A DNA stretch of 8,709 bases from Takakia lepidozioides (Eukaryota; Plantae; Bryophyta), in assembly GCA_030704615.1 (NCBI GenBank), contig JAKLZA010000193.1, forward strand, positions 1 through 8,709, given 5' to 3'. A program made the position numbers and the translations under genes. Shown here piece by piece: positions 1-8,571 of the stretch. Every line of letters starts with the position of its first letter. The stretch's first letter is position 1. The notes beneath the pieces were generated by a model. The model did no database searches, was not told the origin of the DNA, and saw nothing but the letters and a program-made list of their open reading frames with translations.

Positions 1-70
1 GTTGCTCTGCCGCCCACAGAGCAATTTGAGGATTGTGACGGCTTGGGAGGGGCACTTTTTTTGTTCTTGC

Positions 71-530
71 TGTGACAGGCCGTTGCCCATGGCCTTGGGG
101 CTGGTGCGGGCTGTGAGGGGCTGTGACAGGCAGTGCGTGAGGCCTTTGGGGCTGTGACGGGCTGTGAGGGTTGTGACAGGCTGTGCCCATGGCCTTGGGG
201 CTGTGAGGGCTGTGAGGGGCTGTGACAGGCGTGCTGAGGCCTTTGGGGTGGCTGTGACGGGCTGTGCTGTGAGGGGCTGTGACAGGACGTGCCTGAGGCC
301 TTTGAGGCTTGTGACGGGCTGTGAGGGGCTGTGATGACAGGCCGTGCCCATGGCCTTTGGGCTGTGACGGGTGTGAGGGGCTGTGTGTGACAGGCAGCGC
401 CTGAGGCCGTTGGGGCTTCTGTGAAGGGCTTTGTTTTTGTGAGGGGCTTGTGACAGGCATTGTGCCTGAGGCCTTTGAGGCTGTGACAAGCTTTGGAGGG
501 CCTGTGACAGGCTGTGCCCAGTGGCCTGTG
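71..530. repeat. Degenerate ~50-bp tandem array (about 9 units) built from 10-bp subunits
   Basis: (TG)TGACAGG recurs at 71, 122, 172, 221, 278, ~335, 386, 449 and 503. Consensus is approximately CTGTGACAGG CTGTGCC(CAT/TGA) GGCCTTTGGG GCTGTGACGG GCTGTGAGGG. Confidence 0.93.
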
Positions 531-573
531 GACTGTGGACGTTGTTGTGAACTCAGTGAGCTGTGTGGGACTT

Positions 574-633: not shown

Positions 634-1017
634 TGGGGGACTAAGGACTGGCATGTGGTCTGGAGGCCGAACATTTTGAGCTCGTGGAGGGCGGTTTTGT
701 TTTGAGGAGATCTCATGATATTCCCATGGTCATGCAAGTCAGGTGTAGGCTATGTTAGGAACTTAGTATTCCAAACCATAAGCCGCAACAGGTTCTCTAC
801 CCGGTTACCTTGTGGAGAGGGGGTTAGGGACATGTTCATGACCGGTTGAGTGTCAACACGGAGGTGCCACTAGTTGCTGGGGACAGTGCCGGTTCGAGCA
901 CTAGCGATACTAGTGGGTACACGAGACGAGGTGTGCGGTTTAGGCCACTTCACCTCCTGTGTCTTCCACGGAAGGTTCTGATTCGGATTGTGAATCAGGA
1001 GGAGGGCTCATACGGCG

Positions 1018-2140
1018 GTGCAAGTTGTTTCTTTGCCATTGTTGTGGGACACAATGGAGGAGATGTATGGAGCTACCAAGGGGCCACGGGCAACCATTGA
1101 GTTGGATGATTTTATCCAAGAGTTTGATAGTTGGTGTGATTTGCAGCAAATGCGCAATCCACAACTATTTACGCCGTTCATGGCATGGAAAGGGCTGTTT
1201 CAGCACCTTGAGGGCCGCCTATGGATGATTACCATGAGTTCAGGCGGGGGCATGAGGTTGAGATCGAGGAGTGGAGGATGTACTGGTCACCCGACTATGT
1301 CTCCATCACTAGGGGCACTAGAGCCACGAGGGCAGTGGCTACACCTGCCGCTGCACCGGCAGCTTCAGCAAGCAGCAGTGGGACTGGTGGTACAGTAGCT
1401 ACGACGTCCACCCAAGCCACTACCGCACCAGCACTAGCACCCGTGCCTGCCTTCAACCCTGTTGTGGAGTTCTTCGAAGAGTTGAGAGGGAACTACCAAG
1501 GGGTGAGGACAGAGAAGTTGCGGAGCTTGCAAGAGTTCCAACGGAAGCCGACCGAGAGCTTGAGGGAGGCTTTCACTCGCATGAGGCGCTTGATAAATGT
1601 AACCCAAGGGGTTACGGAAGCTCAGGCAGTCCAATTCTGGTATGGGATATTGGACAAGGAGCTGAGGAGAAGGGTGCGGGATGCAACTCTCCTACAAGCG
1701 GCCCAACCCACCTTAGCAAATGTGTTTTTGCTGGCAGAGCGGATAGAGCTCAACATGGTGGAGGAACGAGTGGTCATGGTGGGATTTGCTAAGGAGACAC
1801 CACGGGGTAGTGGTGCTCCTAGCCAACCACTACCTCAACGTGCTCAAGGCAACAAGGGGGCTCAGGTGAAGCTCAGGGAAGGGCAGAGAGGACCTCAGAT
1901 GCAGGGGTCTCTCCCTTCATTTGCTGGCCAACAACGGGCGGATGTGGTGTGCTGGACATGTGGAGGACCCCATGTCAAGAAGGATTGCCCAGAGGGAGGC
2001 AAAGGGTCGGCACATGCACAGCCTGCACAGTTGCAGTGTGGGCATTGTGGCAAGCACGGGCATGGAGAGGCCCAGTGTTATGGTTTGCATCCTGAGTTGC
2101 GCCCAGGCCAGTTCCAAGGGAACAATGGTGGCCGGGGCGA
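1018..2140 (+). CDS. gag: Gag (capsid + nucleocapsid), reconstructed across a frameshift at ~1215; true start probably further upstream
   Basis: ORF 1018..1398 (LDDFIQEFDSWCD...LFQHLEG) joins ORF 1221..2261 (MDDYHEF...) by one added base. Major-homology-like LQEFQRKPTESLREAFTRMRRL lies at ~1527-1592, and two CCHC knuckles follow. Confidence 0.88.
1950..2078 (+). other. Two nucleocapsid zinc knuckles
   Basis: CWTCGGPHVKKDC (CX2CX3HX4C, 1950-1988) and CGHCGKHGHGEAQC (CX2CX4HX4C, 2037-2078), followed by an RGG-rich stretch after the ~2138 frameshift. Confidence 0.92.
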
Positions 2141-2179
2141 GGTGGAGCAGCCCAGAGAGGACGAGGTGGCCAGCCACGA

Positions 2180-4987
2180 GTGCAGGCCAAGGGCAAGCTC
2201 AACGTGGCCAAGGACGCGGAGGGTGTTGACCAAGGCATGGCCAACCGGCTTCAGCAGCTAGAGCAGAGGCTCGCTGCCATGGCTACAGCTCAGGTGGTAC
2301 CGGCTCTAAGGCCGGATGGTCCACCTCCTGCTCCTGAGGGAGGAGATATGGGAGGCATGGGATTCATGTGTGGAGCAGCACTACCACTAGTGCAGGTGGA
2401 GTCTGCTGCAGCCGTGACTCGAGGAGCAGCACGAGTTCCTGAGCCACGAGGTGCAGAGGTGGAGTTGGATCCACAGCGTGGGGAGGCAAGCCGTCAGGCT
2501 AGGCTTCCTCAGTCATTCACATTGGCGGAGACAGTGTCGACGCCATCCATGGCACCTAGTTCTCGCCCGACTGTTACCGAGGCGGAGGTTACTATGCCAT
2601 TGGGGAGAGCTACACGGGCAGCACCACTACCTAGTGTTGCCAAGGCTACGGCAGCTAGTGTGCTGCTAGGAGCGGCCACATCTGTGTGCCAGGCTCCATT
2701 GTTCTCGGCTACCATGATTGCGACGCCGGGGATAAGACCAGCTGAGGTGTTCAGGCTGGCAGCTACACTCTGTGAGAGTGGGGAGGTTACTTCATCTTCT
2801 GCGGAGATAGTGGGAGGTGTAGTGCCGGAGGGATCCTCGGATTTGAGGGTCAAGACTGCCACGGCGGCGCCATGGCAAGCTGCAGCTGCCAGGTTGATGG
2901 AGCTGCCAGCTAGGCCAGCCATTGAGCGCGCCATGGTGACACCTGGAGTTGTCATGTTAGACAACCAGGATGGCATTTTCTGTTTGAGTGGACCGGCAGG
3001 CAAGAGGTACCGGCCACTGCGAGTCTTGTTGGACTCGGGAGCTCAGCCACTGATGCTGGGCAGAGCTGCTATTGCAGGCTTGGGCCTCACGGAGGCGGAT
3101 ATGGAGCCTTGTCCTTTCCAGATACAGACGTCTCTGGGAGGATCGGAGCAGGCTCGGGGCATGACACGGCATGAGTTGGCTATCAGACTACGGCCGGATC
3201 ACCCTACAGATGGCTCAGTGATGCGAGCCAAGGCCATTGTGACAGACGCAGTCTCATACGATGTCCTGGTTGGTGGGGCAGTGTTGTACCCCATGGGCTT
3301 CACCCTGGATTTTTGGGAGGAGTCAGCTTCCTATAGGCCTGCATGGCAGTCAGGGGAGGGCCGGCGTGTGCAGCTCCCTGTGACGTTCATAGGAGGAGTT
3401 GCGGTTGCCCAGCGAGGCAAGATGCCGACACTAGCAGCATTCACAGCGGCAGTGAGTTGGCCTAGAGAGTTGCTTGAGGGCAATGCTCATTCAGAGGATG
3501 TACCACCTCCGGGAGAGCAGGATGACATGTATGGTATGGCGGAGTTGCCTACCATGGTTGCTCAGACTCCATTGTGGGGCACGAGCAAGGATTTGCAGCG
3601 GGATGCTGATCGACGGGTGCAACAAGCCTGGGTGGAGGCTTTTGTACCGTCAGGAGAGGAGGAGAGTGTGGGGATTGCACCAGGACCACCTCAATTGTCT
3701 CCATTGGACACCACACCTATTGTGTGGCAGTCTCCGGATGAAGGCATTTGTCTTCTGGACTTGTTTGGCGGGATCAGCACCGGATTGGCTGCTGTGTTAC
3801 AGGCAGGTGTACGAGTTCGGCGTTACCTGTATGTGGAGAGGGATGAGACTGCACGACGCGTTTCACTTCGCCATGTTGCTCAGTTGGTGCAGCGGTACCC
3901 TGAGTTGTTGTCGGTGTCTGCAATTCGTGGATATCAGCAGGCCTTGCCAGCAGACATTTCGTTGCTGGGGGCGCAGGATTTGGAGCGGGTTGGCTCCATT
4001 GATCTGGTAGTGGCAGGTTGGCCCTGCCAAGGGCATTCATCAGCCGGGCATGGCAATGGATTGCGAGACTCGAGGTCGGGTCTGTTTTGGGAGATGGTGC
4101 GGGTTTTGCGCCACTTGCAGCTTCATCAAGCTGTATCTCCAGCATACATCTTGGAGAATGTGCCACTGATGGGCGGGGCCAGGGTGATGGCCAGTGTGCA
4201 TCAAGTCCGGTCGTGGCTTGGGTCAGCAGTGTTGCTAGATGCAGCTACAGTGGGGTCACGGGCTCATCGTCCACGGCTATGGTGGACTAACATGATGCCA
4301 CCCGCACTGCTCAAGCGTGCATTTGATGGGGTGCAGCGGCCAGCACATCTCACAGTGGATAACATTCTGGACACAGGGAGGCAGTCTCAACGTGTGAGAC
4401 ACGATGACCGTTCGCCTTTGGCAGTGGTCAACAAGGTGGGTCAACCACGAGCAGCATTACCTACACTGCTCAGCTTCCCAGGATCGCATGCTTTCCGGGA
4501 TAGTGGACCTGGCCTCCTGTGGGATGCTCAGTTGCAGCAGTTAGTGGAGCCTAATGCTGACGAGCGTGAGCGGGCAATGGGTTTTACCACTGGTACCACG
4601 GCGGTGTCGTCTCTTTCTGAGGCATCACGTCGTCAAGTGTTGGGGCAAGCAATGGATCTCAATTGCTTGACCTGGATTATCAGCTTGGCTCTAGCTGAGC
4701 AACGCAGAGTGCGGAATACACTTCCCTCAATGGTCTCTCTGCCTACCGAGACGGTACAGGCAGTGAGTGGGGGCGAGCATATGAGGACCACGGGGTGCAT
4801 GCATCCATGGCACACGTGGGAGGTGCTCGAGGTTCAGAGGGAGTTGGCAGCCAAGGCGGCTGTGATGGATGAGGTTGGGGATTCTTCTCGGGTTGAGGAG
4901 GTCCTCAAGGATGAGATGATGGGGCAGGATGAGGCCTTGTCATTGACTGAGCAGGTAGGAAGTACTGCTCAAGAGGTTGCAGCATAG
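2180..4987 (+). CDS. Polyprotein segment: linker + aspartic protease + C5 DNA methyltransferase (probably continuous with Gag)
   Basis: Uninterrupted 935-aa ORF containing LLDSGA and the C5-MTase motifs. Adding one base at ~2138 fuses it to Gag as ...GGRGRGGAAQRGRGGQPRVQAKGK. Confidence 0.92.
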   Translation: MQAKGKLNVAKDAEGVDQGMANRLQQLEQRLAAMATAQVVPALRPDGPPPAPEGGDMGGMGFMCGAALPLVQVESAAAVTRGAARVPEPRGAEVELDPQRGEASRQARLPQSFTLAETVSTPSMAPSSRPTVTEAEVTMPLGRATRAAPLPSVAKATAASVLLGAATSVCQAPLFSATMIATPGIRPAEVFRLAATLCESGEVTSSSAEIVGGVVPEGSSDLRVKTATAAPWQAAAARLMELPARPAIERAMVTPGVVMLDNQDGIFCLSGPAGKRYRPLRVLLDSGAQPLMLGRAAIAGLGLTEADMEPCPFQIQTSLGGSEQARGMTRHELAIRLRPDHPTDGSVMRAKAIVTDAVSYDVLVGGAVLYPMGFTLDFWEESASYRPAWQSGEGRRVQLPVTFIGGVAVAQRGKMPTLAAFTAAVSWPRELLEGNAHSEDVPPPGEQDDMYGMAELPTMVAQTPLWGTSKDLQRDADRRVQQAWVEAFVPSGEEESVGIAPGPPQLSPLDTTPIVWQSPDEGICLLDLFGGISTGLAAVLQAGVRVRRYLYVERDETARRVSLRHVAQLVQRYPELLSVSAIRGYQQALPADISLLGAQDLERVGSIDLVVAGWPCQGHSSAGHGNGLRDSRSGLFWEMVRVLRHLQLHQAVSPAYILENVPLMGGARVMASVHQVRSWLGSAVLLDAATVGSRAHRPRLWWTNMMPPALLKRAFDGVQRPAHLTVDNILDTGRQSQRVRHDDRSPLAVVNKVGQPRAALPTLLSFPGSHAFRDSGPGLLWDAQLQQLVEPNADERERAMGFTTGTTAVSSLSEASRRQVLGQAMDLNCLTWIISLALAEQRRVRNTLPSMVSLPTETVQAVSGGEHMRTTGCMHPWHTWEVLEVQRELAAKAAVMDEVGDSSRVEEVLKDEMMGQDEALSLTEQVGSTAQEVAA
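2950..3340 (+). other. Retropepsin-type aspartic protease domain
   Basis: VLLDSGA with the catalytic Asp codon at 3032-3034, flap-like IQTSLGG, and C-terminal YDVLVG...LYPMGFTLDF (~3257-3313). Confidence 0.88.
3746..4690 (+). other. C5 cytosine DNA methyltransferase catalytic domain, DNMT3-like
   Basis: Motif I LLDLFGGISTG (3752-), II YVERD (3830-), III DI (3953-), IV DLVVAGWPCQ (catalytic Cys 4025-4027), VI ILENV (4148-4162), VIII AHRPRLWWTN (4262-4291), IX ERERAMGF (4562-4585) and X RRQVLGQAM (4628-4654), in non-permuted order. Confidence 0.96.
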
Positions 4988-4993
4988 CAACCA
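4985..4993 (+). promoter_or_regulatory. Candidate leaky stop codon (UAG-CAR-YYA readthrough signal)
   Basis: TAG CAA CCA. The frame stays open from 4988 into the RT ORF at 5147 (5147-2180 is divisible by 3, and no stop was found when reading codon by codon). Confidence 0.6.
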
Positions 4994-6119
4994 CGGGACG
5001 CGTCCTCTACCTCTAAGCCCACTGGACTTAAGGTTGTAGTTACGGAGGACAATTGGGAGCCTGACATTGGACCCATTGTCACCGGAGGAGAGAGACGACG
5101 TATACGGCGGTTCCTGAGGGCTTACAGGAATTGCTTTGCCTTCAGTTTGAAAGACTTGGGAGCACTGAAGGGTCAAGAGATCCGTATTGAGTTGGCCACT
5201 GACACGCCAATCTTTCGGAGACCCTATAGATACAGTGACATGGAGAGGTCTTTGATTCAGATGAGGACTCAAGATCTCTGGGAGGCAGGTTTGGTGGAGC
5301 TCTCTGGTGGAGAGTATGCTTCAGCCACAGTGATGCCAGCCAAGAAGGATGTCTATGGCAATTGGACGGAGAGACGTATGTGCGGTGATTACCGGCCTGT
5401 AAATCGTCAGACCAAGTCCGATAAGTATGCCATGCCAACACCAGAGGAGATCTTTGATGCCATCGGGCATGCTAAGGCCTTTAGCACTTTGGATTTACGA
5501 TCCGGATATCACCAGTTGCCAATCAAGGAGGCGGACAAGCAGAAGACGGCATTCTGGGGGATCAATGAGCACGGCAAGGATTGCCTATATCAGTGGCGGT
5601 TCTTACCATTTGGGCTTAAGAATGCTCCTGCAGAGTTTCAGAGAGTCATGGATAGGATTCTAGCAGGGTGGACTTTGCTCGGTGCTACATAGATGACATC
5701 ATCATCTTTAGTGTTACGATGGAGGAGCATGAGAGACACCTTCAGGTGGTATTGGAGCGCTTGAGAGCGCACGGATTGAAGTTGCATCCGGGGAAGTGCA
5801 AGTTTTTCCACAACCAGATTGAGTATCTGGGTCACATGATATATCCTGGAGGATTGGGGGTACAGCAGACTAAGGTAGAGGCCATTGCACAAATTCCACG
5901 CCCCACGGATGTGAGCCGAGTTCGAGCTTTCATGGGGTTGGCAAACTATTATAGACGGTTTGTCAAAGGATTTAGTACCATTGCAAAGGCTCTAACCAAG
6001 CTGACCAAGGTGGACCAGGAGTGGCAGTGGGAAGATGAGCAGGAACGAGCTTTTCAAGAGCTCAAGGCGAGGTTGACCTCGGCGCCTATCTTGAGACGAC
6101 CAATCAGGGGGCGTCCTTT
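4988..6119 (+). CDS. pol: Reverse transcriptase and connection region (frameshift at ~5667)
   Basis: PIFRRPYR, RMCGDYRPVN, FSTLDLRSGYHQ, KTAF, LPFGLKNAPAEFQR, then YIDD (5686-5697), KCKF, YLGH and FMGLANYYRRFV in ORF 5668..6198. Confidence 0.96.
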
Positions 6120-6475
6120 CAGCTGCATACGGATTGGAGCATGCTGGGGCTTGGAGCGGTGCTCACACAGGTGGATGATGAGGGAAGAGAGTTCGTAGTG
6201 GCTTACGCTAGCCGCTCGAACAACGCTGCAGAGGCTAAGTACAGCTCATATGAGGGAGAGTGCTTAGCTGCAGTGTGGGCCGTGGCACACTTCAGGTGCT
6301 ATCTATACGGCAATCTTTTCACCCTTGTCACGATCACCAGCCACTCAAGTGGTTGATGGAGTCAGACAAGCTTACGGGGAAGCTTGCACGGTGGGCACTT
6401 ATACTCCAGGAGTATGACTTTCAGGTTGTGCATCGACCGGGTTTGGTCAATCGGGATGCGGATGGATTGAGTCGC
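6120..6475 (+). CDS. pol: RNase H domain (frameshifts at ~6120 and ~6332)
   Basis: Reconstructed FQLHTDWS (Asp 6132-6134), GLGAVL, VAYASR, YSSYEGECLAAVWAV, TDHQPL, ARWALILQEYDF, ADGLSR (6458-6475). Confidence 0.93.
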
Positions 6476-6871
6476 AATCCATGCATGAGCCAGCAGGATG
6501 ACACTGGAGCTCGGTGGCATGGTGAGACGGACGAGGAGATGGTGCCGGGATGGCACGCATCTGCATTTTTGTGTATCTTGGCATCGGGAGGTCAGATTGG
6601 ACCTACAACAGGGATGACTGTAGACGGAGTGTCTGAGGACCCTGAGGCTAGTGATGAGCTAGGTGGTGCCAGAGATATACATGAGGATTCGGCTGTGTTG
6701 GACTACCTCCGCACGGGAGACACGGCAGCCATTGTGACTGCCAGGGAGAGGGATCGGATCCTGCAACGAGCCAAGAGGTTCAAGTGGGAGGGGATACACC
6801 TACTTCGAGTGTGGGAGGATGGTCGGGTGAGGATTGTGCCTCACCCCACACAGCGTGCACGGTTAGTGCGG

Positions 6872-7915
6872 CATGCCCATGAGGAGTTGGGGCATTTTGG
6901 AGTGCGACGCACTCACAGTTTACTGCAGGGGCAGTATTGGTGGCGTGGTATGCATACAGAGGTGCAACAGTTTGTGGCTAGGTGCATGGTGTGTGACAGG
7001 GTGCGTGCTTCATTCAACGCCCCTACACCACAGTTGCATCCTTTACCTATCATGGGATTGGGCTACAGGTGGAGTCTTGACTTCGCAGGACCGTTGCCAC
7101 TGACTATGCGCCACCACAGATATGTGTTGGTGATGGTGGAGCACTTCTCCAAGTGGATTGAGTTGGTTCCATTGCCTGACAAGGCTAGTGAGGGGGCTGC
7201 GTATGCATTCTTGGATCGTGTGCTTAGCCGATTTGGTGCTCCAGCTGAGGTACTCACGGACCAAGGGAGAGAGTTCTTGGGGGAGTTTCAGGCTTTGTGT
7301 GATAAAGCCTTGATAGACCACCGCACCACTTCTCGGGATCATCCTGAGGCCGATGGCTTAGCAGAGAGAGTTGTTCAGACGGTGAAGAGGGGTTTGCGCA
7401 AGTATGGCTTACAGAAGGGACACCTAGGAGATTGGGATCTTCAGGTTCCTTGGTTAGCCATGGGCTACAGGTTCAGCAAACAAGCATCACTTGCCTCCTT
7501 CTCACCATATTTCCTTCTCTTTGGCCGAGAGCCGGATTTGCCTGCAGCCATTCGTAGGGACACTGCTCAAGTCCTTAACCTTGACGATCCGGACATGTGG
7601 GTACGTGCATGTGATCAGCGTGCAGAGTTGTTCAAGAAAGTCATGCCCATGGCTTTTGAGAACCTTGCCATTGCACAGCACCGTGATACGTTGAGGTATG
7701 CCACTATACGTGGTGGAGGATATCGTCCTGGGGTTCGGAGGTTTAGCCCTGGTGACTATGTTTATTTGCAGCAGACTGCTCCTACGACTCTGGATGTTAC
7801 TGCAGGGCGTGTTATTCTGAGGGTTCGAGAGGTGTTGCCCTCAGGGGTCCTGATCTTAGAGGGTCGGGATGGCATGACTTGGAAAGACCATGTGCGTAAT
7901 TGTGCGCCATGTCAC
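6872..7915 (+). CDS. pol: Integrase (HHCC zinc finger, DDE core, SH3-like C-terminal region)
   Basis: HEELGH...CMVC (6878-6994), WSLDFAGP (Asp 7079), LTDQG (Asp 7259), GLAERV (Glu 7364) and SPYFLLFGREP, all within ORF 6260..7972. Confidence 0.96.
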
Positions 7916-7974
7916 CTTCCCAATGTCGATGGCAGAGTTGACCCAAACTTGGCAGTGGTACTGCAGGTTTGAGG

Positions 7975-8118
7975 TGCATGCTCTGTGGGTCTGCCAAAGG
8001 GGCAGCCACCATGCTGGTGTGTGATCGGTGCTCAAGGGGTTGGCATATGGGATGCTTGACACCACCCCTTGAGAAGGTTCCTGACGGAGATTGGTTGTGT
8101 CCACACTACTTGGGATAG
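7975..8118 (+). CDS. PHD finger at the polyprotein C-terminus (reached via a frameshift at ~7961; absent from the ORF track)
   Basis: Manual translation: CMLCGSAKGAATMLVCDRCSRGWHMGCLTPPLEKVPDGDWLCPHYLG*. This is a C4HC3 pattern with the typical PPLxxVPxGDWxC segment; the last Cys reads TAC (Tyr). Confidence 0.92.
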   Translation, partial: CMLCGSAKGAATMLVCDRCSRGWHMGCLTPPLEKVPDGDWLCPHYLG

Positions 8119-8367: not shown

Positions 8368-8377
8368 AGGGGGGCGA
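8368..8377 (+). promoter_or_regulatory. Candidate polypurine tract; possible 3' LTR start at TG 8379
   Basis: AGGGGGGCGA about 250 bp after the pol stop, followed by T-TGTGTGG. It is short and there is no 5' LTR copy to confirm it. Confidence 0.4.
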
Positions 8378-8385
8378 TTGTGTGG

Positions 8386-8496
8386 ACTAGTGACTGCCAT
8401 AGTGGGCAGCGTAGTGGCAGCCTAGTGACTGACTAGTTGTAGCCTAGTGGTTGGCTTAGTGGCTGGACTAGTGGTAGACTAGTGGTATACTAGTGT
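8386..8496. repeat. Ten-unit 11-12-bp tandem array with a (C)TAGT(GG) core
   Basis: TAGT at 8388, 8400, 8412, 8423, 8434, 8445, 8457, 8469, 8480 and 8491. Confidence 0.88.
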
Positions 8497-8571
8497 GTGG
8501 TGTGCACATGTGTTGTGTGGTTTTGGACAGCGATGTAGTTGTGTAGCAATATGTATGCGCACGACAGCATG

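Follow-up and report, generated by a model that had tools for sequence, protein, structure and literature searches.

The stretch of DNA analysed (the window; positions 1 to 8,709 of contig JAKLZA010000193.1 from Takakia lepidozioides) contains most of a Ty3/gypsy element, with gag, protease, a C5 methyltransferase (DNMT), reverse transcriptase (RT), RNase H and integrase, followed by a PHD finger (Table 1). The open reading frames of the element are interrupted by several one-base shifts. Short tandem repeats were also found 5′ of gag in one related locus (L040). The A-type terminal repeat was absent from the window, and its position is expected upstream from the spacing in relatives. Contigs had loose ends at 8377, 8566 and 8568, and sister contigs continued into an A-like start at 8568.

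Table 1. Features of the element in the window
Feature	Position	Strand	Remarks
Tandem array, ~50-bp GT-rich units	1..550	.	Probably the 5′ untranslated part of the element
gag	994..2261	+	Breaks near 1211 and 2133-2179; PF03732 E 0.002, below cut-off
Two CCHC-type knuckles in gag	1950-1988, 2037-2078	+	
Aspartic protease (LDSG)	3011..3160	+	PF13650 weak, E 0.045; homologous stretch in related loci
DNMT3-like C5 cytosine methyltransferase	3731..4714	+	PF00145 E 9.6e-12
In-frame TAG, then CAA CCA (CARYYA, TMV-type context)	4985..4993	+	Conserved in relatives
Reverse transcriptase	4988..5841	+	Frameshift near 5665; PF00078 in two frames
RNase H	6028..6415	+	Frameshifts near 6115 and 6331; PF17919 and PF17917 in three frames
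Integrase	6845..7960	+	PF17921, PF00665; barrel and linker from model of intact relative L035
Integrase subparts: H2C2 zinc domain; core; SH3/Tudor-like barrel; short linker	6845-7009; 7064-7345; ~7750-7920;	+	
One-base frameshift, integrase linker/PHD boundary	7960	+	
C4HC3 PHD finger	7975..8118	+	Eighth ligand Tyr in window copy; stop 8116-8118
Polypurine tract, then terminal B repeat	~8368-8377, ~8377-8566	+	Element end at 8566

At the breaks in gag the extra base was present in other contigs, and between 947 and 7960 there were about ten sites at which sister contigs have one base that is missing from the window. The differences are all one-sided, as would be expected of consensus errors in long reads more than of old decay. 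The host has many copies of the family, with more than 80,000 matching contigs in each of runs X1 and X2. CpG observed/expected ratios were 0.52-0.70 in four elements (no control set).

The PHD finger at the end of integrase

The finger was read in frame 7960-8115, where PF00628 was matched with E 6.6e-12 and 45.7 bits (cut-off 24), the match covering positions 1-46 of the 47 in the profile. The ligands span 7975-8109, beginning with Cys1 at 7975. The integrase ORF (6254-7972) is in a different frame from the finger and overlaps it near 7960. A first-pass annotation had placed a PHD finger after integrase, hidden by a frameshift, and had proposed the Pfam search that now bears it out well above the cut-off. 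Its C4HC3 assignment holds; sister copies have eight zinc ligands, and the window copy has seven of eight, with Tyr in the last place (8107-8109). The motif RGWH, with Gly two residues before the His, was confirmed in this frame. The residues around Cys1, given earlier as PAGLRC, read TAGLRC in the window; PAGLRC arises by reading across the shift.

The codon of the eighth ligand was Cys in ~99% of contig depth at that point (runs X2 and X4), and the extra base at 7960 was found in contigs of all four runs compared (19, 24, 2 and 1 contigs). Among the PHD variant rows listed (40 of 67), seven codon differences were synonymous and the eighth was the private Tyr. The frameshift at 7960 and the Tyr at the eighth ligand are defects private to the window copy, the frameshift being due either to assembly error or to decay.

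Fusion of the finger to integrase in accurate copies, on which the first-pass reading depended, was found throughout the relatives. Eighty loci were fetched, some of them duplicates; in 11 the end of integrase was missing, and a further 8 did not extend far enough. Of the 61 reaching at least 120 nt beyond integrase, 47 carried the PHD in frame with ligands C1-C6 intact, and the remaining 14 were visibly decayed. Among 120 long relatives, 114 had the finger in the integrase chain; most of the six chains without it end early or diverge close to the end of integrase. It was also present in 84/85 near-length relatives running at least 55 aa beyond integrase, and in 134/134 of the 50%-cluster representatives extending past integrase (from the best 150). 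A chance frame or an unrelated insertion was ruled out by this in-frame fusion in related loci and proteins. The eighth zinc ligand was Cys or His in all 112 parsed proteins. PHD dN/dS was 0.05-0.44 in 18 of 21 pairs (two were saturated and one had a dS of 0), and the finger evolves under purifying selection.

In a model of the integrase C-terminus and PHD of L035 (pLDDT 85, 40-row alignment), a β-barrel is followed by the finger, which overlays the fingers of BHC80, BAZ2A/B, DPF3, UHRF1 and ATXR5 at 1.3-2.1 Å. An annotated gene of Marchantia polymorpha (Mp7g09570, P0223) is an internally deleted copy of the element with an intact PHD; it keeps protease and DNMT pieces together with the integrase C-terminus.

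The finger had been described as standing in place of a chromodomain. The position at the integrase C-terminus is indeed the same, and the likeness is positional only. Chromoviruses likewise carry a histone-reader module there but use a chromodomain, whereas the window's family uses a PHD without an aromatic cage. PF00385 was found in none of 240 precomputed domain lists and in none of 26 scanned proteins. The best 150 representatives were all within the PHD clade, and one Atlas comparison gave generic Ty3/gypsy neighbours only.

Family membership, the methyltransferase and the stop before RT

The methyltransferase retains motifs I, IV (PCQ), VI (ENV), VIII, IX and X, and its best PDB matches were DNMT3A (E 2e-11), followed by DNMT3B, DRM2 and HhaI. 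With a DNMT3-like domain bearing catalytic motifs in a Ty3/gypsy polyprotein, the element is a member of the published KnitGypsy-Dnmt3 family. A DNMT3-like domain before RT and A...B-A-B repeats are likewise reported for streptophyte Gypsy-DNMT3 elements, the DIRS-like layout being that of the Klebsormidium nitens element KnitGypsy-Dnmt3 (PMC5890265). Such terminal repeats were found in five loci (L005, L018, L051, L076 and L077), four of them with a matching 4-bp target duplication (read by eye). The window holds the B repeat only, and many copies likewise stop after the first B repeat. Phygy, a non-chromovirus element of Physcomitrium defined by a 4-bp NCGN target duplication (PMC6317226 supplement), was considered as a family assignment and rejected, since NCGN was found in just 2 of 31 distinct flanks.

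In an integrase tree of 121 rows, clade A (the window, Coleochaete and K. nitens; DNMT before RT) was separated from clade B, and the window was grouped with K. nitens elements in clade A with a support of 95. The DNMT tree (87 rows) had the same A/B split with a support of 99, and the Mantel r on 85 shared rows was 0.74. Both are midpoint-rooted FastTree trees without an outgroup, and they fit a single capture followed by relocation as well as they fit two captures. K. nitens P0044 was in the window's clade in both trees. Two further K. nitens proteins (KFL_015960010 and KFL_005000010) bear the same PHD, and the finger is therefore a trait of the published family; a PHD is unmentioned in the main text and three text supplements of PMC5890265. 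The nearest named relatives are liverworts, as would be expected of a bryophyte host: Calypogeia fissa (82-88%), Riccia sorocarpa (85%) and Marchantia polymorpha (66%). P0137 is listed as an uncultured cyanobacterium protein and is probably a binning contaminant, and P0002 (Coleochaete scutata) has a transcriptome-assembly name. A G-patch domain lies between DNMT and integrase in P0033 and is also listed for P0028 and P0039.

The DNMT of KnitGypsy-Dnmt3 was reported within the Pol ORF (PMC5890265), whereas a conserved stop lies between DNMT and RT in the window's subclade. The two domains are in the same frame and the stop splits it; this was treated as a trait of the subclade and as no ground for exclusion from the family. 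A stop with CARYY immediately after it was found 5′ of RT in 32/40 elements, and in four divergent lineages. In seven of the other eight the stop is present but its context is mutated, interrupted or masked; the eighth (L024) was not assigned. The commonest context was CAACCC (26 cases), the last base of which departs from CARYYA. In L035, which is intact, one stop codon (5083-5091 together with its context) separates a 1369-aa gag-PR-DNMT frame from a 1047-aa RT-RH-IN-PHD frame. Decay as the origin of the TAG at 4985 was ruled out by L035 and by the conserved stop and context in relatives. CAR YYA is the readthrough signal of TMV, with about 10% readthrough in vivo (PMC2754532). It is therefore likely that translation is programmed to leak through the TAG at 4985, from gag-PR-DNMT into RT-RH-IN-PHD, an arrangement that would likely group protease and DNMT with Gag. 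Some clade-A chains (P0010, P0022 and P0044) have no such stop, and DNMT and RT form one chain. No paper on retrotransposon readthrough with CARYYA was found in the literature searched. Readthrough signals of this kind occur in other retroelements.

The named members of clade B are chlorophytes (Tetrabaena, Pleodorina, Volvox, Chlamydomonas eustigma and Hariotina). In published accounts, DNMT3 in retrotransposons is limited to streptophytes and dinoflagellates (PMC12344493; 10.64898/2026.05.21.726589), and the papers covered name streptophytes alone for Gypsy-DNMT3. The clade-B DNMT follows RNase H and precedes integrase, in most cases by 90-290 aa, and motif IV is mostly E-C rather than P-C (56/85). 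The PHD is followed by a Tudor/SH3-like barrel, a fold label taken from the strand pattern and not from a database match, in 75/90 clade-B proteins and 0/24 of clade A. A second methyltransferase follows the PHD in 53/90 and 0/24, respectively. Examples of this C-terminal tail of 100-500 aa are P0027, P0056, P0099 and P0105. A model of the second methyltransferase has a class I SAM methyltransferase fold and two members gave weak D12 adenine-methylase matches; it may be an adenine methyltransferase. Neither the window nor any of the 80 loci matched profiles of the barrel and the second methyltransferase. Nested within clade B are two groups (P0049/61/74/88 and P0094/100/106) that have the PHD without a DNMT. 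This absence covers an open protease-to-integrase chain in three of these seven proteins, with two further such representatives, and for the other four the region upstream of RT is outside the chain.

Predicted histone-facing residues of the finger

The best solved sequence matches of the PHD were CHD4, PHF12, KDM5A/B-PHD1, DPF3, ATXR5, BHC80, BAZ2A/B, UHRF1 and AIRE. Going by entry titles and by 10.1101/715474 and PMC5415848, most of these solved proteins read the H3 tail in its unmodified state. Key positions were taken from KDM5A-PHD1 (10.1101/715474) and BAZ2A/B (PMC5415848) and surveyed in 112 of 114 fingers, two being unparsed.

At the cage position, two residues N-terminal to the His, Trp was found in 0/112, 0/81 and 1/133 fingers of three partly overlapping sets, and the window has Gly there. 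The first-pass annotation had excluded an H3K4me3 reader on that Gly, and the survey extends this to the family: with no methyl-lysine cage, the finger, as judged from these residues, is not an H3K4me3 reader. The Asp after Cys3, which is essential for H3R2 in KDM5A-PHD1 (10.1101/715474), was present in 107/112 fingers, and hydrophobic β1 residues in 110-112 of 112. The window finger retains this Arg2-binding Asp, the β1 hydrophobics and the Ala1 pocket. A second acid of the Arg2 pocket is rare family-wide (11/112).

The acidic wall is distributed unevenly. It was found in 70/89 clade-B fingers, in 5/12 of the rest of clade A and in 0/11 of the window's subclade, and also in 0/37 distinct locus fingers; the window is without it. 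The acid before Cys1 was present in 2/11 of the window's subclade and is absent from the window. Its absence had been given as a caveat in the first-pass annotation, which was right and understated the loss, as the subclade is also without the acidic wall. Median finger charge is +1 to +2 near the window, compared with -4 in clade B. The rows are related, so the acidic/basic contrast counts as about one evolutionary change. Neutralisation of the acidic patch lowered BAZ2A binding 17-fold (PMC5415848). The fold, β1 hydrophobics, Arg2 Asp, Ala1 pocket and lack of a cage Trp are shared with the KDM5-PHD1, BAZ2A-B and BHC80 readers, from which the window's subclade differs in having no acidic wall and mostly no N-terminal acid. 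By its residues the family appears to read a free H3 end that is not trimethylated. The window's own finger type, on the same evidence, is one that has lost the residues best supporting K4me0 reading, and because the subclade lost the acidic wall it is predicted to bind more weakly or with less selectivity for K4.

Proposed roles of the finger and the methyltransferase

The feature is real, conserved and part of a known family, and a role in targeting is probable. We give roughly even chances to the reading that the conserved PHD at the tip of integrase tethers the integration complex to nucleosomes and acts independently of the DNMT. The finger would make this tether through the free N-terminus of histone H3. 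Readthrough would yield much Gag-PR-DNMT and little RT-RH-IN-PHD, the protease would free IN-PHD, and the DNMT may act on cDNA inside the particle. As the finger would disfavour promoter chromatin with H3K4me3, insertion may be directed away from active genes. PHD and DNMT likely work separately, since a conserved and likely leaky stop divides them. If it is read through, the DNMT would be as plentiful as Gag and IN-PHD much scarcer. Such a ratio fits an enzyme that methylates cDNA within the particle, as has been proposed for DIRS elements (PMC5890265), and a finger with a targeting role of its own.

The first-pass annotation had proposed a rebuilt DNMT3-like pair. In such a coupled reader/writer the PHD would guide integration to chromatin unmethylated at H3K4, where the DNMT packaged with it would methylate the cDNA or the insertion site, by analogy with the ADD and catalytic domain of DNMT3A. 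The co-occurrence count that it had called for gave both domains in 86/120 long relatives and 28/29 long loci; the search behind the first count, for proteins of at least 1002 aa, was biased to chains including a DNMT. The shared A/B split of the DNMT and integrase trees, the catalytic Cys kept in 82/85 DNMTs, and the short distance from DNMT to integrase in clade B with its acidic wall also favour a coupled pair. Co-retention and agreeing trees count against an independent tether, because a functional pair would give the same. The lost acidic wall and mostly missing N-terminal acid of the window's subclade, and the rarity of the second Arg2-pocket acid, also weigh against an H3 tether. In the window's clade, however, the DNMT is before RT and before the conserved stop, ~1,090 codons from the PHD, with the stop, RT, RNase H and integrase between. 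The PHD has also outlasted the DNMT in two lineages, and the KnitGypsy DNMT was inactive in a yeast test that its authors called inconclusive (PMC5890265). The finger, furthermore, is a canonical PHD and not an ADD, and the ADD of DNMT3A differs from it in domain and arrangement. An ADD is composed of a GATA-like finger and an atypical PHD, and adjoins and regulates the catalytic domain. A rebuilt DNMT3-like pair is doubtful on these grounds, and we regard coupling as unlikely and less likely than an independent tether.

Drift of the land-plant finger to another job (binding of DNA or nucleosomes by a basic face, stabilisation of the integrase C-terminus or docking of a host protein) would explain why the subclade has Ala, Gly, Lys or Arg where the acidic wall and N-terminal acid would be, with a net charge of 0 to +3, in a finger still under purifying selection. 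The Ala1 pocket, β1 and the Arg2 Asp are nevertheless unaltered, and PHDs that bind H3 in the extended form are also without the acidic wall (PMC5415848); drift seems an improbable account of the finger. Binding of chromatin outside target choice (nuclear retention, post-insertion remodelling or anti-silencing), with selection making any bias, is more improbable still. The function of PHDs in transposable elements was left open with "chromatin restructuring" cited (PMC8557442; PMC9940879), and the four-base target sites had no clear motif in the 31 distinct flanks, both of which suit such a role. The finger is, on the other hand, fixed at the C-terminus of integrase, the position of the targeting chromodomain (PMC6673714).

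PHD fingers are widespread in retrotransposons (PMC6673714; 10.1101/2021.11.30.470311; PMC8557442), and have been proposed to steer or soften insertion (PMC9940879; PMC8557442; PMC6673714). In Gypsy-7a_cRei and REM1 of Chlamydomonas, in CR1-like LINEs and in Chlamys the PHD is likewise an accessory domain; unlike in the window's family, no DNMT is reported for these elements in the parts of the sources covered. Intergenic insertion of a PHD-bearing Chlamydomonas Gypsy was 2.6-fold above expectation, which speaks for a tether, with selection as another possible cause (PMC9940879). As in the window's family, EpiLTRs combine a reader and one or more DNA methyltransferases in one LTR element. They carry a chromodomain and a DNMT4-sister enzyme, considered by their authors to be distinct from Gypsy-DNMT3, in contrast to the PHD and DNMT3-like enzyme of the window (10.64898/2026.05.21.726589), and in the window's family a second methyltransferase is confined to clade B. 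The accessible article text that was searched has no mention of the PHD-DNMT3 pairing, of the conserved stop or of clade B. Figures and bioRxiv supplements, notably Fig. 4c of PMC5890265 and Fig. 2 of the DAM-LTR preprint, may nevertheless depict the PHD or clade B already.

More tentatively, the elements may form an old green-plant clade, possibly predating the chlorophyte-streptophyte split, that co-inherited a PHD-tipped integrase and DNMT3 as a working reader/writer. The leaky stop of land plants would then tune dose, and chlorophytes would have moved DNMT3 next to integrase and added the barrel and a second, probably adenine, methyltransferase. This is a possibility that we hold to be doubtful. 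If true, it would make the clade a third, independent "epigenetic toolkit" retrotransposon, a type not found in the literature searched.

In that literature no test of the binding partners of a retrotransposon PHD was found, though such fingers are widespread. The family is suited to binding tests, as it offers natural intact fingers of acidic and basic type, DNMT-less lineages and the Marchantia polymorpha copy (Mp7g09570). Published chromatin maps reportedly exist for this model liverwort (10.1101/827881). A conserved leaky stop would indicate the dose of methyltransferase per particle and so bears on the idea of self-methylation of cDNA by these elements. Should the finger direct insertion off H3K4me3, it would represent a second strategy of chromatin targeting beside the chromodomain.
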